Shown piece after piece: positions 1,435-62,008 of a DNA stretch of 64,000 nucleotides. The position numbers and the translations under genes are program-made. Below the pieces are notes generated by a model. It was given only the letters and a program-made list of their open reading frames with translations. It was not told the DNA's origin and did no database searches. This stretch comes from an uncultured Candidatus Izemoplasmatales bacterium (GTDB taxonomy: Bacteria > Bacillota_I > Bacilli_A > Izemoplasmatales > Izemoplasmataceae), in contig CAYVZR010000001.1 in assembly GCA_964456195.1 (NCBI GenBank), positions 17,591 through 81,590 of the forward strand, written 5' to 3'. How positions within the stretch are numbered: position 1 is the stretch's first letter; each line of letters begins with the position of its first letter.

Positions 1435-1782
1435 AATATCAATACTATGTAAGCCATGTTCTGTACCCTAATAAAAGGGTGGTAACCATTTATCTACGTA
1501 TAAATACGTCTCCTCTTCGGTTCATTTACCAAGTTGGAGTGCCCCTACCATAGTTTGGGTTTCTAGCTTGTGGGGTTTACCCGTTCCACCTTCATAGTTT
1601 CCTATAAAGTTCGTCTCTGTGGCACTTTTAAAGATACTAACACCATTTAACAGGTGTATTCTCAGCCGTCACTTACGTGCATAGAGTTATTGTTTCCTCT
1701 ATCACAATCACTACAAGCATCTCAGCTTGTGCTAGCATGGACTTTCCTAACCTTTCGGCTCGATTACCCAAGTATTAATATT
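1435..1782 (-). ncRNA. rnpB: RNase P RNA, type B (Firmicutes type)
   Basis: Minus strand reads ...GGTTAGGAAAGTCCATGCTAGCACAAGCTGAGATGCTTGTAGTG... and ...ACAGAACATGGCTTACATAGTATTGATATT. These are the universal GGAAAGTCC and ACAGAA-N-GGCUUA blocks. The P1 helix pairs AATATTAATACT with AGTATTGATATT. Close resemblance to the B. subtilis rnpB as I recall it. Confidence 0.85.
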
Positions 1783-2002: not shown

Positions 2003-4174
2003 TTATTCTTTTGTTTCTGTTTTTGCAATAGGGGTAGTTTTAACAACTGGTTTAACAACTGGTTTTGGAAGAGTTGCTTTTCTTGATAAATCAACTCGTC
2101 CTTTATCATCTATTCCAATTACTTTAACTGAGATCATATCATATAATTTAACAACATCTTCAGTTCTTTGAACTCTTTCATGAGCTAGTTTTGAAATATG
2201 ACAAAGACCATCTGTTCCTTTCCATAACTCAACAAAGCATCCAAATTTTTCAATTCTAACTACTTTACCTGAGTAAACTTCTCCTACTTTAGCAACTTTA
2301 ACTATATCTTCTATTATTTTTATTGCTTTTGCAATGTCAACAGTATTAGTATGCATTATTGTAACTCTACCAGTTTGTTCAATGTCGATTTTAACATCAT
2401 TACATTGTTCAATGATTTGAGTAATTTGTTTACCCCCAGGGCCAATAACGTCTCTGATTTTGTCTGGATCAATTTGCATTAATTTAACTTTAGGTGCATA
2501 TTCCGCTACTTCTTCTCTAGAAACAGCAATAATATCATTCATGTTTGCAAGAATTTCAAGTCTTGCGATTCGTGCTTGTTCTAAAGCTTCTTCCATAATA
2601 TCATTATTGATTCCATCAATTTTGATATCCATTTGTAATGCTGTAATACCATCTTTTGTTCCTGCTACTTTGAAGTCCATGTCTCCATTATGATCTTCCA
2701 TTCCTTGAATGTCAGTCAAAATTGAATAACTGTCTCCTTGTTTAACTAATCCCATTGCAATACCTGCAACTGGGCCTTTAATTGGTACACCAGCAGCCAT
2801 TAAACTCATACTACCAGCACAAATTGTTGCTTGTGAACTAGATCCATTGCTTTCAAGTATTTCTGAAACTATTCGAACTGTATAAGGAAATTCTTCTTCA
2901 TTAGGCATAACTTGTTTTAATGCACGTTCACCAAGCATACCATGTCCAATTTCTCTTCTTCCGGCTCCCATATATCTTCCTGTTTCACCAACACTGTATG
3001 GAGGGAAATTATAATGTAACATAAATTTCTTTTCTTGTCTTTCAGCAATACCATCTACAATTTTATGTTCTCTAAGAGAACCTAAAGTAGTCAATGCTAA
3101 TGCTTGTGTTTGACCTCTTGTGAACATTGCTGAACCATGAGTTCTTGTGAATAAGTCTATTTTAGATTCAAGTGGTCTTAATTCATTAAGTTTTCTACCA
3201 TCAGGTCTAACTTTATCTTCACTTATTAATCTTCTTACTTCGTCTTTTACTATGTCATGACAAACTGATCCAACATCAGATAGTAATGCTTTAAGATCAT
3301 CTTTGTCCATACCAGCGTTATCTTCTTCATATTTAGCAGTAATTGCGTCAGTAACTGCGCTTATAGCATCTTCTCTAGCTTTTTTCTCTTCAGTTTGAAC
3401 AGCTTTAACCATATCTTTTTCAACAATAGCTTTAACTTCTGCGAATAATTCAGGGTTTACTACTTTATAATCATATACTTTTTTCTCTTTTCCAACTTCT
3501 TTGATAATTTCTTCTTGGAATGCAACGATTTTCTTAACCCATTCATGTCCAAAGTTAATTGCTGCTAACATATCTGTTTCATTAACGATTTTAGCGCTTG
3601 ATTCTACCATGTTAACTGCATATTTAGTTCCTGCAACTATTAATTCAATATCAGAAAGTTTTTGTTGTTCAGTTGTAGGATTTACTATTAATTTTCCATC
3701 TACTCTACCAACATTTACTCCTGCAATAGGTCCGTTAAATGGAATTTCACTAATTCCAAGTACAATACTACTTCCTATCATAGCAGTCATTTCTGGTGAA
3801 TGATCTTGATTTCCACTCATTACTTGGTTGATTACTTGTACTTCGTTTCTAAACCCATCAGGGAATAGAGGTCTAAGTGTTCTATCAATCAATCTTGAAG
3901 TAAGTGTTTCATTATCACTTGGTCTTCCTTCTCTTTTTAAGAACCCACCTGGGATCTTACCTGCAGCATACATTTTTTCTTGGTAAATACTCATTAATGG
4001 GAAAAAATTCATTGGAACAGCTTTTTTCGATATAGCCGTAACACTTAAAAGTGCAGTGTCTTCATATCTAACTAATGCAGCCCCTGCTGCTTGCTTAGCT
4101 ACTTCTCCAATTTCTACAATTAATTTTCTACCATCAAAATCCATCTCGAATATTCTTACGTCAGTCATATTCAT
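2003..4174 (-). CDS. pnp: Polyribonucleotide nucleotidyltransferase (PNPase)
   Basis: 723 aa. Two RNase PH domains, a KH region ([12 protein letters not shown]) and an S1 domain ([20 protein letters not shown]). Confidence 0.95.
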
Positions 4175-5082: not shown

Positions 5083-6179
5083 AATGGTTCAACAATTTTT
5101 AGTTTTTTTGAATCCTCTCGCAGTTCAATAATATATTCAAATGTTACTTTAATAATTCCGGTAATCGGAATTGCCAAGATAATACCCGTAACTCCAAATA
5201 AGGAACCAAAGAAGATGAAACTTGATAATATGAGTAATGGGTGAATGCTAACTTCCCTTCCCATTATCCAAGGCTGTATAATACCTCCTTGTAACCCTTG
5301 ACCAACAAAATTCACTATTATAATTGCTATGAATGTCCATTCCCCAAACATTAATTCTCCTGGAACTGTAAATGAGTATAATAATGGAAGTAACATTCCA
5401 ATAAAACCACCAATATAAGGTATTATATCTAGGAATCCTAATGTGAATCCAAAGAAAATACTTCTTTCACCAAGTCCAAGAATAAAGAATATAATTGTAA
5501 AGAAGATACTCATGATGAACATTGAAGTAAATCTTCCGTTAAAATATTTTTCAATAACAACATTTGATCTAATTCCAAGTTCTCTTAAGTCTTTTTTGTA
5601 TTTTTTTGGTACAACTACAAGTAATCCTTCAAATATCTTTTCTTTATCATTAAGAATAAAGAATAAAAATACCGGAATTAATACTATACTTAATAAAATA
5701 CTTATAAAACTTTTGAATAGGTTGAAAATGTTGATGCTTATAGCTGATACGCTATCTAAACTAACGTAACTACTAATCGATTCATAAAAATCTGCAAATC
5801 GAGAATTATTTTCAGTGAAATTTTCTATTGATGCTAAAATGCTTTCCCAGTCATATAAAACAAATACTTGTGCTTGATCGTAAATCATATTACCTACTAA
5901 TAGAACAAACAAGGCAATAACGCCTAACAACAAGATAAATACTAGGATTACACTAATCCATCTCTTTTTAATTTTTTTATCAAGTAATTTTACAATTGGA
6001 GCAAGTAAATAACTGATAAACAAAGCTACACCTAAAGGGAATATAATTGCATTAATAGCTATAAACAATGTATCAATTTGAGATCCAAATAAATCATTTG
6101 CGTATTTTATTGATATTAATAATAAAGCAATAATACCAAGGTTTTGAAGTGCCTTAACTCTTTTTGCGCTTTTACTCAT
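5067..6179 (-). CDS. AI-2E family transporter (PerM/UPF0118-type permease)
   Basis: 370 aa polytopic membrane protein. The C-terminal part ...IIPYIGGFIGMLLP...QPWIMGREVSIHPLLILSSFIFFGSLFG... is typical of the family. Confidence 0.8.
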   Translation of the reverse strand: MSKSAKRVKALQNLGIIALLLISIKYANDLFGSQIDTLFIAINAIIFPLGVALFISYLLAPIVKLLDKKIKKRWISVILVFILLLGVIALFVLLVGNMIYDQAQVFVLYDWESILASIENFTENNSRFADFYESISSYVSLDSVSAISINIFNLFKSFISILLSIVLIPVFLFFILNDKEKIFEGLLVVVPKKYKKDLRELGIRSNVVIEKYFNGRFTSMFIMSIFFTIIFFILGLGERSIFFGFTLGFLDIIPYIGGFIGMLLPLLYSFTVPGELMFGEWTFIAIIIVNFVGQGLQGGIIQPWIMGREVSIHPLLILSSFIFFGSLFGVTGIILAIPITGIIKVTFEYIIELREDSKKLKIVEPLKPSK

Positions 6180-13260: not shown

Positions 13261-13683
13261 GTGATGACTATTATAAAAATTAAAGAACTAAGCGATGTTA
13301 TAGATATTGCACAATGGACAAACCTGGAACAAAACTTATACTATGATAAAGATTCTCATAAAATAATAATTGACTCTGTAGAATTTTATGACGATGTTAA
13401 TCTTATGGATGATGCCAATGATGAATATATCAGTATAGTCGTTGAGCCATTTAGTAGAGATATGTTTTTAAGCTTCTTTTTAACCATTAAGAATGACACA
13501 GTAAAACAAATGTTTTTTGATAAATTCCATGGTTCTAAAAAGTATCGCAAAGTAAAGGACTTGTTTCCTCGCTATCATTTACTAGAATCATTCTATCATT
13601 ATAAAGATGATTATATGTTGAAGATAGCTGAAAAATGGTGCAACGAAAACAATATTTCATATCTCGATTTTGATGAAAAGTAA
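13261..13683 (+). CDS. Hypothetical protein, possibly UPF0158 family
   Basis: The C-terminal pattern ...FHGSKKYRKVKDLFPRY.LLESFYHYKDDY....AEKWCNENNI resembles the G-x-G-A-F-R-R-F-K / W motif I recall for UPF0158. The likely start is ATG 13264, after AAGAGGTG. Confidence 0.45.
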   Translation: MMTIIKIKELSDVIDIAQWTNLEQNLYYDKDSHKIIIDSVEFYDDVNLMDDANDEYISIVVEPFSRDMFLSFFLTIKNDTVKQMFFDKFHGSKKYRKVKDLFPRYHLLESFYHYKDDYMLKIAEKWCNENNISYLDFDEK

Positions 13684-14108: not shown

Positions 14109-14519
14109 ATGTTAGAAAAAAAACAAAATAACAGAATAATTTTAGTTATAATTATGATTTTACACGGAGTTTCTATTATGATTAAATACATCCCGGAGAT
14201 GATAAATCAAAAACCTTACGTTATTTATAGCATTGAATATTCTTCATATTTACATTTTATAGGAATATTTCTAGGGTTATTACTTATACTATCAGGGCTT
14301 GGAATATATTACAAAAAAATAGCAACACATTACCTTGCGCTGAGTATTTATGTAATATTTGGAATCTGGATAATTGTATGGTATATAATTGATATTATTA
14401 AGTATTCATCTTTGTCTTCATCTTCATTCCCATTACTGCTTACAATTTTAATTATTGGATATATAGCTGTAATGATTTACTTCATTCATAAATCAAAAGT
14501 GAAAATACAAAAAATGTAA
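14109..14519 (+). CDS. Hypothetical integral membrane protein (about four TM helices)
   Basis: Good RBS (GAGGTGA, 7 nt before the ATG), a hydrophobic 136-aa ORF and a strong terminator downstream. Confidence 0.5.
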   Translation: MLEKKQNNRIILVIIMILHGVSIMIKYIPEMINQKPYVIYSIEYSSYLHFIGIFLGLLLILSGLGIYYKKIATHYLALSIYVIFGIWIIVWYIIDIIKYSSLSSSSFPLLLTILIIGYIAVMIYFIHKSKVKIQKM

Positions 14520-14691: not shown

Positions 14692-14790
14692 GGAATTACT
14701 TGTAACCCAAAGGTCTAAACCTAAAATGGTCGGGGTAAAAAAATAACCAAACCTATAAAGGGATTGGTTATTTTGGTTACAAGTAATTCC
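14692..14790. repeat. Perfect 16-bp inverted repeat (GGAATTACTTGTAACC / GGTTACAAGTAATTCC) separated by 67 bp
   Basis: Read directly: arms at 14692-14707 and 14775-14790. The right arm overlaps the acceptor end of the tRNA fragment, and the spacer contains the fossil terminator. Confidence 0.85.
14735..14773 (-). terminator. Fossil terminator immediately 3' of the tRNA fragment
   Basis: Minus strand: AAATAACCAA-TCCCTTTATAGGT-TTGGTTATTT followed by TTTT. Confidence 0.45.
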
Positions 14791-14827
14791 GGGAGGGATT
14801 CGAACCCCCGGCCGACGCCTTAGAAGT
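14785..14827 (-). pseudogene. 3' half of a tRNA-Arg(UCU)-like gene (anticodon loop to discriminator); no 5' half
   Basis: Minus strand: A-CTTCTAA-GGCGT-CGGCC-GGGGG-TTCGAAT-CCCTC-CCGGAAT-T. The anticodon loop has TCT, the T arm is intact and an acceptor 3' strand is present. The upstream sequence cannot pair as an anticodon stem or D arm. Confidence 0.55.
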
Positions 14828-16567: not shown

Positions 16568-16906
16568 TTATATTGTTTCGATATTTGTGATTTTATATGC
16601 TGAAACGGCTAATTCATTGATATAGACGAGCTTGTTAAATTGGTCAGTTCTTGTTATTCTTCCTTCTACTTCTAAAATGTCACCTTCATCAAAGTAAGAA
16701 ACTAATATAAGACTATTAAACAGGTTTGCAATTTCTAGCTTATAGTTTAAGTCCGCTTCTTGATCTGGACTAAGTACTGGCATTTCTTTCCTAGTTTTTC
16801 CATTTAATAGTTCTTTTAGATAATCACTTTGTTCTAAAAGAGCATTGAACGGCATCCATTTCATCATTTTACGATCATGATAAACATAGTTATCCATTAT
16901 GTCCAC
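16568..16906 (-). CDS. YolD-like protein (accessory to Y-family polymerases)
   Basis: 112 aa. The MMKWMPFNALLEQSDYLKEL pattern (K-W-x-P-F) matches YolD/YqjX-like proteins, and the gene overlaps the end of the polymerase gene. Confidence 0.6.
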   Translation of the reverse strand: MDIMDNYVYHDRKMMKWMPFNALLEQSDYLKELLNGKTRKEMPVLSPDQEADLNYKLEIANLFNSLILVSYFDEGDILEVEGRITRTDQFNKLVYINELAVSAYKITNIETI

Positions 16907-18155
16907 CTACCATCGTATTACGCGCTATTACTGTTGAATCTTTAAGCAAACTGCTTGCTCTAAGAGCAGCACTTTTTCCATACTTGTATTTAATGTTGTC
17001 AATTGATGAATGAAGTTTATGATCTTTTATTACTTTATTCATATCTTTAAAGAGATTTAGTTGAACGAAGTACTCTTCTACTAAGTTAGTAACTCTGATA
17101 GTTACTTTTCTGATTGGGGAACCGTCATAAAACTCATCAAATAGAGTAATACAAGAATTATAAATCTCCGCTTCGTTATTAGTTGGGAAAGTTAATGTCA
17201 TTTGACGATTAAATCCACCTTTAATTTCTTTAGAATAAGATATTCCTAAATTTACTGTATAAGCTTTTTTATTGCCAACTCTAAGTCTTTTTGTTACTTC
17301 GTCTGTCATTTCTAAGATGATTTGTGTAACAGTATCACCGTAGTAATCATGAAATAGAGTTTGACCCATTCCATAACTTTTAGAAACTGGTTTATAAACT
17401 AGTTTCTCGTTTATTATAGACATATCAATACCATGAGCGTGGTGATATAGTTCTTCACCCATTACTCCATAAAACTTTTGAAGTTTCTTAAGTGGGTAAT
17501 GTGCTAAATCCCCAATTGATAAGATACCTAAACGATTTAGATTACGCTCCATATTCTGACCAATTCCCCACATTTTCGAAAGCGGAAAGATAGACCATAA
17601 CTTGGTTGGAACATCATCATATGTCCATTTAGCAATGAATGTAGGTGACTTTTTACTTTCAACATCAAGTGCTATTTTAGCTAGAAGCATATTCGGACCT
17701 ATCCCGCAAGTTGCGGGTATTTTTGTTGTCTTTAAAATATCTTTTATTATTACTTCAGCTATTTCATAATCAGTTTTTTTGTAAAAAGACAGGTAACTGG
17801 TCAAGTCCAGGAACACCTCGTCTACTGAGTAAATATGCATATCTTCATACGAAACATATTTAAGGTAAATTTCAATAATCCTTGTTGAAAACTCTAGATA
17901 CTTTTTCATTCTTGGTTTTGCATAGATAATTCTAGGATCATCAGGGAGTTCATATACGCGGCATCTACTTTTTACTCCACGTCTTTTAAGGTATGGTGTA
18001 ACAGCTAGTACAACACTACCGTTTGACCGAGATTTATCAGCCACAACAAGTGGAGTTGTGAATGGGTTTAAGCCCCTTAAAACACACTCAACAGAAGCAT
18101 AAAAACTTTTTAAATCGATACAAATTATGTTTTTATGAAGTCGATATTGTTCCAT
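16890..18155 (-). CDS. Y-family (UmuC/UvrX/PolY2-like) DNA polymerase
   Basis: 421 aa. Contains ICIDLKSFYASVECV, SVDEVFLDLT and WGIGQNMERNLNRLGI motifs. Confidence 0.85.
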   Translation of the reverse strand: MEQYRLHKNIICIDLKSFYASVECVLRGLNPFTTPLVVADKSRSNGSVVLAVTPYLKRRGVKSRCRVYELPDDPRIIYAKPRMKKYLEFSTRIIEIYLKYVSYEDMHIYSVDEVFLDLTSYLSFYKKTDYEIAEVIIKDILKTTKIPATCGIGPNMLLAKIALDVESKKSPTFIAKWTYDDVPTKLWSIFPLSKMWGIGQNMERNLNRLGILSIGDLAHYPLKKLQKFYGVMGEELYHHAHGIDMSIINEKLVYKPVSKSYGMGQTLFHDYYGDTVTQIILEMTDEVTKRLRVGNKKAYTVNLGISYSKEIKGGFNRQMTLTFPTNNEAEIYNSCITLFDEFYDGSPIRKVTIRVTNLVEEYFVQLNLFKDMNKVIKDHKLHSSIDNIKYKYGKSAALRASSLLKDSTVIARNTMVGGHNG

Positions 18156-30349: not shown

Positions 30350-30545
30350 AAAAATCGCCCCTAAATCTAAGGGCGAATTAATTCCGCGGTACCACCTTAG
30401 TTCCTAGTTAACTAGGCCCTTAACTCTTAACGCGAGTGACGTCTCTTTCTACTTATTTCAAAAGAGCCCTCAAAAGTGTCTTCGTAAACAATCGCTGTAG
30501 ATACTTTCACCAGTGTATCTTTCTCTATGACAACGAATAATCAAC
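30350..30545 (-). promoter_or_regulatory. T-box leader (tRNA-sensing riboswitch) controlling hisS-aspS
   Basis: The minus strand has CTGGTGAAAG (distal loop GGUGNRA), GAA-GAC-A (specifier context) and the T-box core AAGGTGGTACCGCG (30386-30397). The terminator is CGCCC-N10-GGGCG + TTTTTTT (30350-30376). Confidence 0.8.
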
Positions 30546-30589
30546 TACTATTCTTTTTCATTGGTTTTATAAGTAAGATTATACCCTTA

Positions 30590-57375: not shown

Positions 57376-57936
57376 ATGTCATTAACCGATTTAGTAGAAT
57401 TAGCAAAGGATAATTTGATTGTTACAATAGTCATAGGGTTACTGATACTGTTTATTATCTTTAGACTCAATAAAGCTATCCACATTCATTTAGGTGCAAA
57501 AAAATATGTTAGAAAATCCAAAAAACTTAGGGGAAAAAAATACAATGGTGTTCGACTTGGAGTTTTAATAAAAAGCAAGAGAAAGAATGGCACTAATTCA
57601 TATAAAAAACTGCGAGGCAGAGCTAAGAGAATGGTTAAGAAATACTTTAATTATAAATTAGAAGAATTACCTATTATTACTAAATATTCTTATGGAAAAC
57701 TATACAAGGTATCACACGATAGATTAATAATTTTCGCTAAAAATAAAAAGAGAATAGTAAAAAAAGTTAGAATCAAAAAAGGTCTAAATGATTTAATTGA
57801 TTTTACTAATAAATATGAATGTTTAGATGAAATGGTTCTCTTCTTACATAATTTACCTGAAGCTATTTTAGAAAAACAAAATTATGATGTTTATGTAAGT
57901 GAACAAGACATTTCAATAGGATATAAAATTAAATAG
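57376..57936 (+). CDS. Hypothetical, extremely basic protein with one N-terminal TM helix
   Basis: 186 aa. TM helix LIVTIVIGLLILFIIF, then K/R runs (KKYVRKSKKLRGKKY, KSKRKNGTNSYKKLRGRAKRMVKKY, KNKKRIVKKVRIKKG). GGAAGTGA RBS. No motif recognised. Confidence 0.45.
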   Translation: MSLTDLVELAKDNLIVTIVIGLLILFIIFRLNKAIHIHLGAKKYVRKSKKLRGKKYNGVRLGVLIKSKRKNGTNSYKKLRGRAKRMVKKYFNYKLEELPIITKYSYGKLYKVSHDRLIIFAKNKKRIVKKVRIKKGLNDLIDFTNKYECLDEMVLFLHNLPEAILEKQNYDVYVSEQDISIGYKIK

Positions 57937-57975
57937 GCTAGTCATTTCTAAAGGCTAGCTTTTGCTTTATAATGA

Positions 57976-58018
57976 CATTCTAAGAGGGATTTGAACCTGC
58001 GACCGACGCATTAGAAGT
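57976..58018 (-). pseudogene. Second, more decayed copy of the tRNA-Arg(UCU)-like 3' half
   Basis: Minus strand: ACTTCTAATGCGTCGGTCGCAGGTTCAAATCCCTCTTAGAATG. 34/43 positions are identical to 14785-14827 by my manual alignment. The T-stem no longer pairs fully. Confidence 0.45.
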
Positions 58019-58085
58019 TTTTTTTGTCCAAATTCGTGTTGTTTGATATTTTATTGAATGGATACCAATACAGTAAAATGGAGAA

Positions 58086-58117
58086 TAGAAAAAGGTAATC
58101 ACATTTTGATTACCTTT
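58086..58117 (-). terminator. Terminator of the ATPase/Toprim operon
   Basis: A 10-bp stem, aaaggtaatc/gattaccttt, followed on the minus strand by TTTTC. Confidence 0.6.
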
Positions 58118-58179
58118 GATTTATGTTTTTAGATTCTTGTAAAGATAAAGAATTAAATAGATGTTTCTATTATTCTTAT

Positions 58180-58956
58180 TCACCTAAACAATAAATTTGA
58201 ATATTTCTTATAAAAAGTTTCAGGAAGTAAATCAATTATATAGAAAATAGATGTATTGATTATATATATTTCACTACTTTTTCCAAACAGTGTATTTTGT
58301 AATGTGAGTAATCTCTTTAAGTTTTCATCATTCTTAGAAATGTACTCATCTATTGTACCGCAATTATATTTCCCATTCAGAAGATAATTCATTTTCGAAT
58401 AATGGTGATATATAAAATTTATTACCACTGCAAAGTTGTACTTGTTCAAATCTGTATATGATGATTCATCTCCGACAATCCTTTTATATTCGTAACAATC
58501 TGAATGAGATACTTTACTAAGTTTGAAATTTGGATCTGGTATTCTACTCATATGTCTATAAGATTGCATCATTGGATAATTTAAAAATAGTTTTCCATAT
58601 TCTCTTGAGTCATTAAAAAAGTTATACATATCATTAATTATATCAGCACTATATTTCTGATAATGTGGATCAAAATCAAATATTAAATAAATAGATTTAT
58701 ACCTTCTACTTAATATTCTTTTTTCAGATTCATCATTACTATTTTCTTTTAGTAATCCTTGCAATGTCAAAAAATCGTCTTCTTTTAACTCAATATACAA
58801 CTTGTGCATTTCATGAATAGTTGTACTAAAAGAAAAGATTGAATAGATATTATTGCTATCAATAACTTTGTTAAGTTTTCTTAATAATTTCCCTTCATCT
58901 TCTTCACCTTCAACAATAAATAAAATATTACTGGTTACATTACCCAACAAATTCAC
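58180..58956 (-). CDS. Toprim-like (RloB/AbiLii- or DUF4435/AriB-like) putative nuclease, 258 aa
   Basis: N-terminal ILFIVEGEEDE (Toprim-type Glu) and IYLIFDFDPH ~80 aa later (DxD), then FLNYPMMQSY (compare RloB SNPxFE.W as I recall it). The GTG start overlaps the ATPase stop by 17 nt. Confidence 0.55.
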   Translation of the reverse strand: MNLLGNVTSNILFIVEGEEDEGKLLRKLNKVIDSNNIYSIFSFSTTIHEMHKLYIELKEDDFLTLQGLLKENSNDESEKRILSRRYKSIYLIFDFDPHYQKYSADIINDMYNFFNDSREYGKLFLNYPMMQSYRHMSRIPDPNFKLSKVSHSDCYEYKRIVGDESSYTDLNKYNFAVVINFIYHHYSKMNYLLNGKYNCGTIDEYISKNDENLKRLLTLQNTLFGKSSEIYIINTSIFYIIDLLPETFYKKYSNLLFR

Positions 58957-60046
58957 CTTGTTTAAATAATTTTTCTAAATTATGAGCTTCCCTAAGTTCT
59001 CTTTCTGTTAATTTCGGAAGGGATGTCAGCTTACTATTATTAATAATATAGTAACAGTCTGGTCTCAAAATGTCATTGTTTAGCAAAGTTGTGTTATGTG
59101 TTGTAAAAATTACTTGTACTTTTGCTTTACTAGAAATATCTTCCAGAATACTTTGAGCTAATTCATAATGATAGAATGCGTCAAATTCATCAACAAATAA
59201 GAATGATGCTTTTTCGAATCCCATACTCCAATAAAAATATAAAGTAAGAGATCTAGTTCCACTTGAAGCAATCTCCCAAAAACTTAACGGTCTATTTTCG
59301 TGATTACTAAGCAGGGATTCTTTTCCTGTAGCATCTTTACCCACACTTAATTTATAATCCATTCCAGCCTTTTTTAGGAATTTATCAAATTTATTTACGT
59401 ATCCCGCTTTAATTATCTTCTCCATAATAAAATCAGTTCCACTTTTGAAGCCGATATAGGATTTATCTTGAACAGATCTAAACCATAGCATATTATTTAC
59501 GAATTTCATAAGACATCCTATATACTTGTTTTGCTCTTGTCCTGGAAAAGCTGAAATATACCTCAAAATAGACTTGTCATTTTTAGGAAATTTATAATTA
59601 TAATCTTGTGCTCCTATTAGTTCAAGATCACCTTTGTCAATTTTACTATTCTTAAAATTATAAGCAAATATTTTATTTCCATTAATGAATAACTCTTCAT
59701 AAAGCAAGCTCTTAGCTGCAGTTTTCTTGTAAGAATATGTAATAATCTCACCATTAAAATCGAAAGTATAAGAAAAAGATGCATAGCCTTCTACACTATC
59801 CGCATTAAGATAATTATTAATTTGATCATTAATTTGTTGTTTATCTACTAAATGTAAAGTGATATCAAATATTGCTAGACCTAAGTTGCTTTTTCCAGTT
59901 GCGTTTTTTCCGTAAATCACCATTGTGTTAATCATATTGTTTTTAACAGCATATTGATTAAATTTATAATCCTTTTTATCACTAAAATCCAATATTAATT
60001 CATCTTTAAAATTCTTATAGTTTTTTACTTTGAATATCTTCAACAT
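58940..60046 (-). CDS. ABC-type AAA ATPase (AAA_15/AAA_21-like), 368 aa
   Basis: Walker A GKNATGKSN, signature-like SSGTRSL, Walker B FLFVDEFD and H-loop TTHN. The start is taken at ATG 60046, after GGGGTG; the track's TTG 60064 lies in the -10 box. Confidence 0.75.
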   Translation of the reverse strand: MLKIFKVKNYKNFKDELILDFSDKKDYKFNQYAVKNNMINTMVIYGKNATGKSNLGLAIFDITLHLVDKQQINDQINNYLNADSVEGYASFSYTFDFNGEIITYSYKKTAAKSLLYEELFINGNKIFAYNFKNSKIDKGDLELIGAQDYNYKFPKNDKSILRYISAFPGQEQNKYIGCLMKFVNNMLWFRSVQDKSYIGFKSGTDFIMEKIIKAGYVNKFDKFLKKAGMDYKLSVGKDATGKESLLSNHENRPLSFWEIASSGTRSLTLYFYWSMGFEKASFLFVDEFDAFYHYELAQSILEDISSKAKVQVIFTTHNTTLLNNDILRPDCYYIINNSKLTSLPKLTERELREAHNLEKLFKQGEFVG

Positions 60047-60063
60047 TTTTATCACCCCATACA

Positions 60064-60092
60064 ATAATACACCTTCCGTATATTTTTGTCAA
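60064..60092 (-). promoter_or_regulatory. Sigma-A-type promoter of the ATPase/Toprim operon (TTGACA-17-TATTAT)
   Basis: -35 at 60087-60092 and -10 at 60064-60069 on the minus strand, with 17-nt spacing. Confidence 0.55.
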
Positions 60093-60229
60093 ATCAAATG
60101 TAATTTTTCTACGGTATTTTTTTTACTATGCCTTCGACAGATTTAATAGAGGTATAATAGTCATATTAGATTATTTTTGATAGCATGATAGTTTTACAAA
60201 TAAAGGTTAGACTACTCTGAAAAAAAGAA

Positions 60230-60640
60230 ATGGCTTAAGAATGAAACTTGTCTACCCATCTTCTATAATCGATATTTTCTCTCCAAAATCCTCTGAAAAA
60301 TTTCTTTCAATATGAGCATTGTATTTTTTACTTATTGCATTAGTAATTGGCATCCCTATCCTAATTTTATAATCTATGTCCTCTCGTTTTTAAATGATGA
60401 ACAATTAAATACAAATTCTCCATTTTCTTTTTTAGATACAAGAAAATGATCTTAGGATAAGTTATGATTTCATCATTATCAATGAGTTTATCATCAATAA
60501 ATATTAGGATATTGTTCATATCAATATTAATATTATGCTCACCAACATTTGAAATAATGATATTATGTTCTCTTTTATTTGATCTTTCTGATTCAGAAAT
60601 ATCATCAAGTTCTTCTATCTCTTAAATCATATCAAAGAGA
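60230..60640 (-). pseudogene. Frameshifted/stop-interrupted relic of an unidentified gene
   Basis: Three protein-like minus-strand segments in different frames: EIEELDDISESERSNKREHNIIISNVGEHNINIDMNNILIFIDDKLIDNDEIITYPKIIFLYLKK / ENGEFVFNCSSFKNER / MPITNAISKKYNAHIERNFSEDFGEKISIIEDG. No ORF of 60 aa or more. Confidence 0.35.
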
Positions 60641-60681
60641 CATACTAGATTTAAATAAAAATCTAGTATGTCTTTTTTTTT
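60638..60681. terminator. Strong hairpin downstream of mtaB
   Basis: A 13-bp stem, agacatactagat/atctagtatgtct, with a 10-nt loop. There is a run of nine T on the + side and a moderately U-rich tail on the minus side. Confidence 0.6.
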
Positions 60682-60715
60682 ATAATGTCTGTTTTAAGGT
60701 AATACTTTCTTTGGA

Positions 60716-62008
60716 CTAGCTTATTATTTTGCCTAAAGTGTCTTTGTAAACGGCTGATTCAATTGCCACATTTTTGATTTCATTATGAAGTTTTTCATCT
60801 TTTTGAACTTTTATATAGATATAAGTACTACTGTGCCCGTATGTAAATTCTTTATCTGTTTTTTCAAAGAGAACACTTAAGTCTTTATCTTTGCTATCAG
60901 TAATGAATTTTGTTGCTAAATCAATGTTAAGATTAAGTAATTGATTTACTCGATATGATTTTACTATACCATTAATTTGATCTTTCATCTCGGCAGCTTT
61001 TGTTCCGCTTCTTTTTGAATAAGGAAAAACATGTAGTTCACTGAAACCTACTTCTTTGATAAATTCATACATTTCATTAAACATTTCATCTGTCTCAGAA
61101 GGGAAACCAACAATTACATCGGTTGTTATTGCTACTCCAGGTATCATTTTACGTAATTGTTTAATATGATCCATATATTGTTCTTTATTGTATTTTCTTT
61201 TCATTAACTTAAGTATTTCATCACTTCCACTTTGCAATGGTACATGTAGATGCTTAGCAAATACTTCATGTTTTGAAATTAAATCAATAACCTCATTTGT
61301 CAATTCACTTATTTCAATAGAAGATATTCTTAGTCTTTTCAATCCTTTTATATCTTTCAAATCATTTAGTAAGTCATAGAAACTATAATGATCTAAATCT
61401 TGCCCATAACCACCAGTATGAATCCCAGTTAAAACTATTTCATGATAGTTGTTTTCTACTAGCATCCTAGCTTCTTCTAGAATTGAATCTTTATCTCTAC
61501 TTCTAACTGGTCCTCTTGCATAAGGAATAATACAATAGGTACAAAAGTTATTACAACCATCTTGTATTTTAAGAAATGCTCTTGTGCTTTCAGTAAAATT
61601 AGTAACGCTCACCTTGTCAAATTCACGATATCTAGAAACATCTGTTACATCTAGTATCCGTTGTCTTTCATTTAAGACCTTTTTAACCATGCCAAGCAGG
61701 TTCTCACGGTGTTTTGTACCGATTACTATGTCAACTCCATCAATTGAGAAAACCTCGTCTGGCGCAAGTTGAGAATAGCATCCCATGACTGCGATTACAG
61801 CTTCAGGGTTGATTTTTATTGAATGTCTAATAGCTTTTCTGCTTTTTGAAGCACCTGAGTTAGTGACAGTGCAAGTATTAATTATATAAACATCAGCGAA
61901 TTCTTTATGATCAACTCTAGTGAATCCAGCTGTTTTGAATAATTCCCATATGCTTTCAGTCTCGTATGTATTTACTTTACATCCTAATGTATAAAACGCT
62001 ATTTTCAT
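60716..62008 (-). CDS. mtaB: tRNA t6A37 methylthiotransferase MtaB (YqeV-like radical SAM)
   Basis: 430 aa. UPF0004 N-domain (FYTLGCKVNTYE), radical-SAM CNNFCTYCIIP and a TRAM-like C-terminus. Confidence 0.85.
   Translation of the reverse strand: MKIAFYTLGCKVNTYETESIWELFKTAGFTRVDHKEFADVYIINTCTVTNSGASKSRKAIRHSIKINPEAVIAVMGCYSQLAPDEVFSIDGVDIVIGTKHRENLLGMVKKVLNERQRILDVTDVSRYREFDKVSVTNFTESTRAFLKIQDGCNNFCTYCIIPYARGPVRSRDKDSILEEARMLVENNYHEIVLTGIHTGGYGQDLDHYSFYDLLNDLKDIKGLKRLRISSIEISELTNEVIDLISKHEVFAKHLHVPLQSGSDEILKLMKRKYNKEQYMDHIKQLRKMIPGVAITTDVIVGFPSETDEMFNEMYEFIKEVGFSELHVFPYSKRSGTKAAEMKDQINGIVKSYRVNQLLNLNIDLATKFITDSKDKDLSVLFEKTDKEFTYGHSSTYIYIKVQKDEKLHNEIKNVAIESAVYKDTLGKIIS

Follow-up and report, generated by a model that had tools for sequence, protein, structure and literature searches.

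The window analysed here is a 64,000-nt stretch of contig CAYVZR010000001.1 from an uncultured Candidatus Izemoplasmatales bacterium. Two overlapping minus-strand genes towards its right end form a self-contained cassette, encoding an ABC-type ATPase (protein A) and a predicted Toprim-fold, RloB-like protein (protein B). The first-pass annotation of this DNA had taken the pair for a candidate phage-defence or abortive-infection module, and the match to Pfam AAA_21, the PADLOC matches, the predicted folds, and the recurrent pairing of the two genes bear this out, with defence as the putative role. The locus is a new, divergent member of the catalogued candidate family PDC-M12. The cassette consists of the following parts.

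58940..60046, minus strand: gene A (PDC-M12A), 368 aa, predicted compact ABC (Rad50/SMC/PtuA-like) ATPase without a long coiled coil

58180..58956, minus strand: gene B (PDC-M12B), 258 aa from GTG, RloB-like Toprim-fold protein, predicted nuclease effector

60064..60092, minus strand: promoter-like site TTGACA-17 nt-TATTAT, 5′ of gene A, the top consensus match in 57-61 kb

58091..58117, minus strand: intrinsic-terminator-like hairpin with an 11-bp stem and a T-run, after gene B

The open reading frame (ORF) of gene A (58940..60064, minus strand) encodes 374 aa when read from a TTG codon and 368 aa when read from the ATG at 60046. Gene B, read from the GTG at 58956, encodes 258 aa and overlaps the gene A ORF by 17 nt. 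Public gene calls on identical metagenomic contigs start gene B at the TTG at 58947 (255 aa, 8-nt overlap), which lies 5 nt 3′ of a Shine-Dalgarno (SD) sequence, AAGGTGA (58959-58953). The overlap of the two ORFs, from which translational coupling had been proposed, holds with either start.

The cassette had also been credited with a private promoter and a terminator of its own. The TTGACA-17-TATTAT site matches the consensus at 11/12 positions and was the best such site in the 57-61 kb region. Promoter-like sites as a class were not enriched there (31 observed vs. 28.7 expected from shuffled sequence), so the site on its own proves little. The nearest homologous cassette is L084, whose A and B proteins are 73% and 55% identical to those of the window. 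It lies among DegV, PadR, and phosphotransferase system (PTS) genes, a setting unrelated to that of the window. Its −35 reads TTGAC, the spacing is again 17 nt, the −10 is TAGAAT, and the ribosome-binding site GGGTGATA is kept. DNA similarity between the window cassette and L084 starts ~70 nt upstream of the ATG and stops within gene B. As these signals are conserved despite the different genomic context, the putative promoter and the SD sequence travel with the cassette, in agreement with the earlier claim. The predicted leader of gene A is very short, because the −10 element is only ~6 nt upstream of the SD sequence. The expected terminator, a hairpin followed by a T-run, was found at 58117..58091 (minus strand), in a region enriched in terminator-like sites (7 found vs. 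0.7 expected). The G+C content of the cassette (26.5%) did not stand out from that of the window (29.8%).

Protein A matched Pfam AAA_21 at 3e-17 (64 bits), above the gathering cut-off of 27. Together with this score, a Walker A motif (GKNATGKS, 46-53), a signature (SSGTRSL, 261-267), a Walker B/D-loop segment (FLFVDEFD, 282-289), and an H-loop (TTHN, 315-318) place A in the AAA_21/AAA_15 group of ABC ATPases. All the motifs quoted in the first-pass annotation are present, and the catalytic residues were invariant in an alignment of 37 ATPase homologues (G46, N48, G51, and K52; S261 and G263; D286, E287, and D289; H317). The AlphaFold2 (AF2) model of A (pLDDT 90.4, pTM 0.90) was matched in Foldseek by PtuA of Septu/retron complexes (1e-11), Rad50 (2e-10), SMC heads, and the Thermus protein Ts OLD (6P74; 2e-8), and among proteins of solved structure the sequence profile of A matched AriA and SMC heads. 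The stretch from Walker A to the signature was predicted to form a β-rich subdomain and short helices, with no long coiled coil. On its predicted structure, A is a compact member of the Rad50/SMC/PtuA-like class of ABC ATPases. The family is large (5,716 database clusters at E ≤ 1e-20), and its best-named relatives are from Izimaplasma, Izemoplasmataceae, and Acholeplasma metagenome-assembled genomes. Neither A nor B had a match in NCBIfam.

An alignment of 48 homologues of B showed invariant E16, G17, E21, F93, D94, G121, N126-Y127-P128-M129, S132, Y157, and K158, with D or E at position 96. When the 48 family members were scanned singly against Pfam, weak RloB matches were obtained for 20 (best 1.7e-4) and weak Toprim matches for 4, and no other Pfam family recurred in more than two of them. 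The AF2 model of B (pLDDT 93.5, pTM 0.90) has the core β1(10-15)-α-β2(37-42)-α-β3(88-94)-α-β4(122-127), followed by a helical C-terminal half. In this model E16 comes directly after β1, and D94-x-D/E96 lies at the end of β3. As reportedly described by Aravind, Leipe, and Koonin in 1998, Toprim has a β-α-β-α-β-α-β core in which a conserved Glu follows strand 1 and a DxD follows strand 3; B shows both this topology and this arrangement of acidic residues. Model and alignment together place the invariant acidic residues E16, E21, and D94, with D/E96, as predicted Toprim metal ligands.

A Foldseek search of B against BFVD, which holds predicted viral structures, gave a single significant match, A0A8S5LTA7, named 'RloB-like protein' (E = 4.3e-4, probability 1.0, 235 aligned columns, TM-score 0.40/0.47). 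B is therefore similar to RloB in fold over the whole protein. The Pfam and PADLOC models for DUF4435, AriB, and AbiLii gave no match to B at E ≤ 1. The earlier indecision between an RloB-like and a DUF4435-like protein is thereby moved towards RloB-like, by the weak RloB matches across the family and the BFVD fold match on one side and the silence of the DUF4435, AriB, and AbiLii models on the other. Our conclusion is that B, a divergent RloB-like protein with a Toprim fold, constitutes a family of its own. This family has 1,804 representatives of 50%-identity clusters at E ≤ 1e-3 and 660 at E ≤ 1e-30, nearly all of ~250 aa. A bona fide RloB protein was sought in the fetched loci and none was found, the partners there being of the DUF4276 and DUF3226 types only.

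Running PADLOC models on the locus, as had been advised, identified both proteins. A matched the PDC-M12A model PDLC04426 at 1.5e-128, with residues 1-366 against profile positions 1-367 of 369, and B matched the PDC-M12B model PDLC04431 over its full length at 5.3e-46; four further B models also matched. The B-model match is adjacent to the A-model match, on the same strand and in the same gene order as in PDC-M12. PDC-M12 is one of 145 'phage defence candidate' systems in PADLOC-DB v2, which the authors stated to be untested, and the candidates came from gene cassettes located within BREX, DISARM, and type I restriction-modification (R-M) loci (Payne et al. 2024, bioRxiv 10.1101/2024.01.29.577857). 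The supplementary table of that study carries the entry CAS_00072, FAM_01143>>FAM_01648, with 272 beside it and the remark "Assign as candidate PDC-M12" (10.1101/2024.01.29.577857). A full-text literature search for "PDC-M12" returned no paper. The window pair is the same in kind as these cassettes and differs in standing alone, not embedded in an R-M or BREX locus. Because of the full-length matches to a catalogued candidate, the proposal that the module might be an undescribed minimal subtype had to be given up. The window pair is nevertheless a divergent member, the best genome relatives of B being at most 46% identical.

In its working, the module would most resemble AbiL/RloAB and PARIS, yet its B protein places it outside both. 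AbiL is an experimentally shown ATPase + Toprim abortive-infection system (PMC13064643). The likeness to AbiL and RloAB lies in the two-gene combination of an ABC ATPase and an RloB-type Toprim protein, and B resembles RloB by weak hidden Markov model matches and by fold. A matched the AbiLi model PDLC02335 at 5.7e-41, over profile positions 49-282 of 326 only. The difference is that B lacks the AbiLii partner's signature, with none of the PADLOC AbiLii models matching it at E ≤ 1.

With PARIS the window pair shares an ABC ATPase in the place of the sensor/antitoxin, a separate Toprim protein as the (here predicted) nuclease effector, and overlapping genes. In PARIS, a hexamer of AriA holds AriB, and a trigger releases AriB, which cleaves tRNA-Lys (PMC11464382). 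Within residues 215-322 only, the profile of A matched AriA chains 8UX9 and 8V45 (1.3e-5), and the AriA model PDLC02980 matched A at 5e-20, with coordinates the same as those of the generic AAA_21 match. However, B had no DUF4435/AriB match, and A is predicted to lack a long coiled coil or helical bundle. Both proteins had been thought short for AbiL or PARIS components; A (368 aa) is indeed shorter than AriA (464 aa), and the length of B is the norm of its own family.

OLD, GajA, and HEC-01/HEC-04 also combine an ABC ATPase with Toprim, and A matched Ts OLD (6P74) in fold and, weakly, the HEC-01A and GajA models of PADLOC. These systems, however, either are fused single proteins (OLD, GajA, and HEC-04) or have another partner family, and Pfam OLD-like_TOPRIM did not match B. 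The best structural matches of A were chains of PtuA from Septu and retron type I-A (1e-11), but PtuA is ~550 aa long and is paired with the HNH nuclease PtuB, not with a Toprim protein.

A scan of one genome per species recovered 175 relatives of B, and the best 80 of the 175 were taken for context analysis. These 80 were found in Clostridia, Erysipelotrichia, Acholeplasmataceae, Haloplasma, Spirochaetes, Negativicutes, Bifidobacteriaceae, Saccharibacteria, and Methanomassiliicoccales-type archaea. In 74 of the 77 loci with upstream DNA, B was immediately preceded on its strand by a homologue of A (E 1e-49 to 1e-132), and the two genes usually overlapped. In 63 non-redundant loci, the 134 genes within two positions of the pair matched 172 different Pfam families, none of them more than four times, so the pair has no other conserved neighbour. 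A conserved non-defence context, which the first-pass annotation had named as grounds for abandoning the defence claim, was not seen in this survey. A minority of the neighbours were of defence type. PDC-S01 occurred four times and other AbiLi/AriA-like ATPases three times, and there were two occurrences each of PbeA, ResIII, and a type IV restriction enzyme. The suggested look for enrichment in defence islands thus gave a divided answer, with some defence-type neighbours and no strong defence-island signal.

The pair is also carried by small mobile elements. The 4403-bp plasmid pEA04.6 of Escherichia (L098, NZ_CP130162.1), which is ColE1-like and mobilizable, carries a PDC-M12 pair as its only annotated cargo besides the backbone, Rop, and small hypothetical ORFs. 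Other mobilizable Escherichia plasmids of 4.0-4.4 kb have B-like genes adjoining a gene for an ATP-binding protein. Filamentous Vibrio phages of 10 kb (Tubulavirales; L099, PQ189311.1) carry the pair as well, with the ATPase annotated as 'Paris_II__AAA_21' and the partner left unannotated. The plasmid and phage pairs were confirmed by the PADLOC PDC-M12 models at 1e-81 to 1e-176.

Other ATPase + Toprim-like pairs were observed a few kb from PDC-M12 pairs in three unrelated genomes, which suggests that paralogous modules of this type cluster locally.

L065:13390-15140: AAA_21 + DUF4276 pair

L075:11917-13710: AAA_15 + DUF3226/OLD-like_TOPRIM pair

L035:275-2105: AAA_21 + weak DUF4276 pair

To place the limits of the inserted DNA, contigs of related populations were retrieved by exact look-up of the RpsU and MtaB proteins. 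The window-type contig L085 was compared by blastn with the empty-site contig L091 and with the alternative-cassette contig L086, and the junctions were read directly (window coordinate = 63213 − L085 coordinate). The site has the following features.

57953..60713: inserted segment of ~2.75 kb, relative to the empty-site allele

60714..60722, minus strand: left junction, ancestral palindrome half AAGCTAGTC, which includes the mtaB stop codon

57936..57961, minus strand: right junction, diverged full copy of the palindrome, AAGCTAGCC-TTTAGAAAT-GACTAGCC

57376-57936, plus strand: orf186, lysine-rich and with a hydrophobic segment at the N terminus, separating the cassette from rpsU

Window-type contigs, which are 99.9% identical, have the order mtaB - A - B - orf186 (reverse) - rpsU. 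The insert contains a 0.6-kb non-coding spacer, the promoter-like site, A, B, the terminator-like hairpin, and a tRNA-like fragment. In the empty allele (L091, 195-235; flanks ~91% identical), the stop codons of mtaB and orf186 lie inside a perfect 28-bp palindrome, AATAAGCTAGTCAATTGACTAGCTTATT. Three further contigs (L086, L088, and L089; flanks ~90% identical) carry another cassette in the same place, consisting of a 106-aa protein with a weak MqsR-toxin match, a 322-aa MqsA-like/SocA_Panacea antitoxin (5e-15), and a 60-aa ORF. Both cassettes, PDC-M12 and the MqsR-like/Panacea toxin-antitoxin (TA) cassette, sit at the centre of the palindrome, the L086 junctions being at 3290-3345 and 5260-5290. 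The left half-site AAGCTAGTC is imperfectly repeated as AAGCTAGCC at the right end. Since this repeat of the half-site falls within the right palindrome copy, the insert is flanked by an imperfect 9-bp direct repeat, AAGCTAGYC.

In relatives further away (MtaB 65-68% identical) the order is mtaB-orf186-rpsU, with only ~760 bp between mtaB and rpsU, and neither A nor B was present in 80 such more distant mtaB loci. A metagenome scan with MtaB gave only relatives of at most 68% identity, informative for the cassette-free ancestral arrangement, and a metagenome scan with orf186 found nothing. The empty and alternative alleles, with the absence of A and B from all 80 distant loci, make the cassette a lineage-specific insertion in a recurrently used site. 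The accessory status proposed earlier, as an insertion in a housekeeping block, is supported by these alleles in ~90%-identical lineages, and the cassette is horizontally acquired. No integrase or transposase was present at the insertion site; site-specific recombination at the palindrome and exchange through flanking homology are candidate routes of insertion. orf186 had no Pfam or PHROG match, and as it is conserved (48-55% identity) beside mtaB/rpsU in the distant relatives, it is part of the core genome rather than of the insert.

Taken together, the pair is most likely a TA-like abortive-infection or defence module. Gene B is translationally coupled to gene A within a self-contained two-gene cassette with its own putative promoter, and B would act as an RloB-like, metal-dependent nuclease of the Toprim fold. 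An oligomer of the ATPase would hold the nuclease inactive until the ATPase senses a cue derived from a phage or mobile element, upon which the nuclease would be released or activated. Once active, the nuclease may cleave either DNA or RNA (tRNA in the case of PARIS), which would abort the infection. By the same logic, the pair would act as an addiction module on its small-plasmid and filamentous-phage carriers. The analysis establishes the family, the predicted folds, the conservation of the catalytic residues, an obligate pairing of A with B, and a mobile cassette whose insertion is polymorphic. We infer that A and B form a complex, that B is an active nuclease, what triggers it and what it cuts, and that phages are affected; the sequestration and abortive-infection mechanism is modelled on PARIS, AbiL, and the AAA+TOPRIM_OLD TA pairs. 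AAA+TOPRIM_OLD/RloB-like pairs behave as TA pairs in Escherichia coli (PMC10440598), and no accession shared between those pairs and PDC-M12 was found in the accessible part of that report.

Several results weigh against this interpretation. B had nothing above threshold in Pfam, with Toprim (PF01751) at 15.9 bits (cut-off 23.1) and RloB (PF13707, a family that includes AbiLii) at 13.6 bits (cut-off 31.5), and because these scores are below the curated gathering thresholds B is not filed under either Pfam family. Foldseek gave no significant match of B in the PDB; the top fold matches were Toprim regions of topoisomerase II/gyrase cleavage cores, weak at E = 0.025-0.36 and a TM-score of ~0.22, the best of them being the topoisomerase II region at E = 0.025. 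OLD, GajA, and AriB were not retrieved in this search, so the suggested fold comparison of B with AriA/AriB-type and OLD proteins did not favour the idea. The profile of the B family against PDB sequences gave noise only (TolC at E ~2), with no sequence match to a solved structure. As no Pfam or PDB match was significant, the Toprim assignment of B draws on topology, motifs, and the one BFVD match. Most immediate neighbours across the loci are ordinary genes, and the window cassette stands alone among housekeeping genes, not in a defence island. No published phenotype was found in the literature for any PDC-M12 member, and the related ATPase + Toprim candidate HEC-01 conferred no defence when Payne et al. 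assayed it (10.1101/2024.01.29.577857).

We consider it unlikely, though worth weighing, that the pair is purely an addiction or stabilisation TA module, in which B is the toxin, A neutralises it, loss of the cassette kills the cell, and there is no antiphage role. On the tiny ColE1-like plasmid the pair is the only annotated cargo outside the backbone, the same chromosomal site holds the MqsR-like toxin + Panacea antitoxin cassette in a sister lineage, and AAA+TOPRIM_OLD pairs act as TA in E. coli, with no phage hits obtained for one AAA-neutralised pair (PMC10440598). The two roles are, however, not exclusive, PARIS combining TA behaviour with abortive infection, and the fully conserved ATPase hydrolysis motifs exceed the needs of a passive antitoxin. 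Moreover, some neighbours are defence genes, and it was through its embedding in R-M, BREX, and DISARM loci that the family came to light.

That origin would also suit a PARIS-like guard of restriction systems, which fires only when a phage inhibitor of R-M or BREX is present (e.g., an Ocr-like DNA mimic). The cassettes that define PDC-M12 came from type I R-M, BREX, and DISARM loci; it was likewise in type I R-M loci that RloA/RloB were first noticed, and AriA is among the matches of the ATPase profile. We regard a guard of this kind as improbable: no R-M, BREX, or DISARM gene adjoins the cassette in the window or in most of the 63 non-redundant loci, B is not AriB/DUF4435-like, and A lacks the long helical insertions and coiled coil that build the AriA hexamer. 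Least credible is a housekeeping DNA-repair module in the manner of RecF (ABC ATPase) and RecR (Toprim), which the fold of A brings to mind by matching Rad50, SMC, and RecF-type heads as well, beside a Toprim-like partner. The presence of the pair, however, varies between ~90%-identical lineages and it is absent from 80/80 more distant mtaB loci; its phyletic distribution is patchy with no conserved context, and it is carried on small plasmids and inoviruses. Such a repair role is very improbable.

The pair adds little conceptually, as ATPase + Toprim defence modules are already a well-recognised theme and the family is already in PADLOC. Its value is practical. PDC-M12B now appears as an RloB-like Toprim protein with defined invariant residues for mutation, and its family, although large, is covered by neither Pfam nor NCBIfam. 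PDC-M12 is highly mobile, with miniature plasmids and inoviruses among its carriers and hosts in different bacterial phyla and in archaea, and the 4.4-kb Escherichia plasmids offer an easy experimental entry to the candidate system. The insertion hotspot with its empty and alternative-cassette alleles makes a neat natural comparison. A bolder view, which we hold as a doubtful but real possibility, is that PDC-M12 is a functionally distinct, minimal branch of ATPase-Toprim immunity, built from a coiled-coil-less ATPase and an RloB-like nuclease, with an assembly, trigger, and target unlike those of PARIS, OLD, and Gabija, and doubling as a maintenance module of miniature plasmids and inoviruses. 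Were this so, the three natural alleles (empty, TA, and PDC-M12) would form a population-level test of cost and benefit.

Two tRNA-like fragments were recognised in the window, one of them at the right end of the insert.

57977..58018, minus strand: degenerate tRNA-Arg(UCU)-like 3′-half fragment, with the T-loop motif GGTTCAAATCC

~14765-14806, minus strand: better-preserved tRNA-Arg(UCU)-like 3′ half, without a 5′ half, followed by a terminator

The T-loop pattern of the first fragment (GGTTCAAATCC, 57977-58018) had 2 matches in the window vs. 0.01 expected, and the two fragments are identical at 34/42 positions. The second fragment has an anticodon loop CTTCTAA, its stem, a variable loop, a T-arm GGGGG-TTCGAAT-CCCTC, and an acceptor strand, and from these letters it reads as the putative 3′ half of tRNA-Arg(UCU). 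ARAGORN, even at 70% thresholds, and Rfam called no tRNA in the window. 3′ halves of tRNA genes are typically carried or left behind by tRNA-targeting integrative elements, which makes the 'scar' of a tRNA fragment noted in the first-pass annotation plausible. The degenerate 3′ half with its T-loop motif supports that idea, the absence of a tRNA call by ARAGORN or Rfam does not, and the fragment lies inside the inserted DNA and not at a host tRNA gene. A general position of PDC-M12 cassettes beside tRNA genes was considered and rejected, since any tRNA within 10 kb was found in 5/60 loci.

The spacer at 60100-60700, inside the insert and upstream of the promoter, is ~600 bp of non-coding DNA with short broken ORFs only. 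It starts with a terminator-like hairpin (60638-60677, 15-19-bp stem), and a related hairpin was seen at the other end of the alternative cassette (L086, 5197-5233). The decayed gene that had been supposed beside the cassette found no support: in a tblastn comparison limited to the proteins of 80 related loci, the spacer gave no significant match.

The fragment at ~14765-14806 adjoins two ORFs without a Pfam match (13261-13683 and 14109-14519) and a gene for a secreted PPC-domain protein, and a pair of YolD and UmuC-like (IMS) polymerase genes lies nearby (16568-18155). This region may be the edge of another integrated-element remnant. Elsewhere in the window, a class B RNase P RNA, the type of Bacillota/Mollicutes, was found at 1445-1775 (minus strand) and a T-box leader at 30366-30570 (minus strand). 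An uncultured, low-GC, Bacillota/Mycoplasmatota-like source with the standard genetic code is indicated by these two RNAs taken with the 29.8% G+C of the window and its gene order, which is dnaK-dnaJ-mtaB...rpsU-phoH-ybeY-cdd-era-recO-glyQS-dnaG-sigA.

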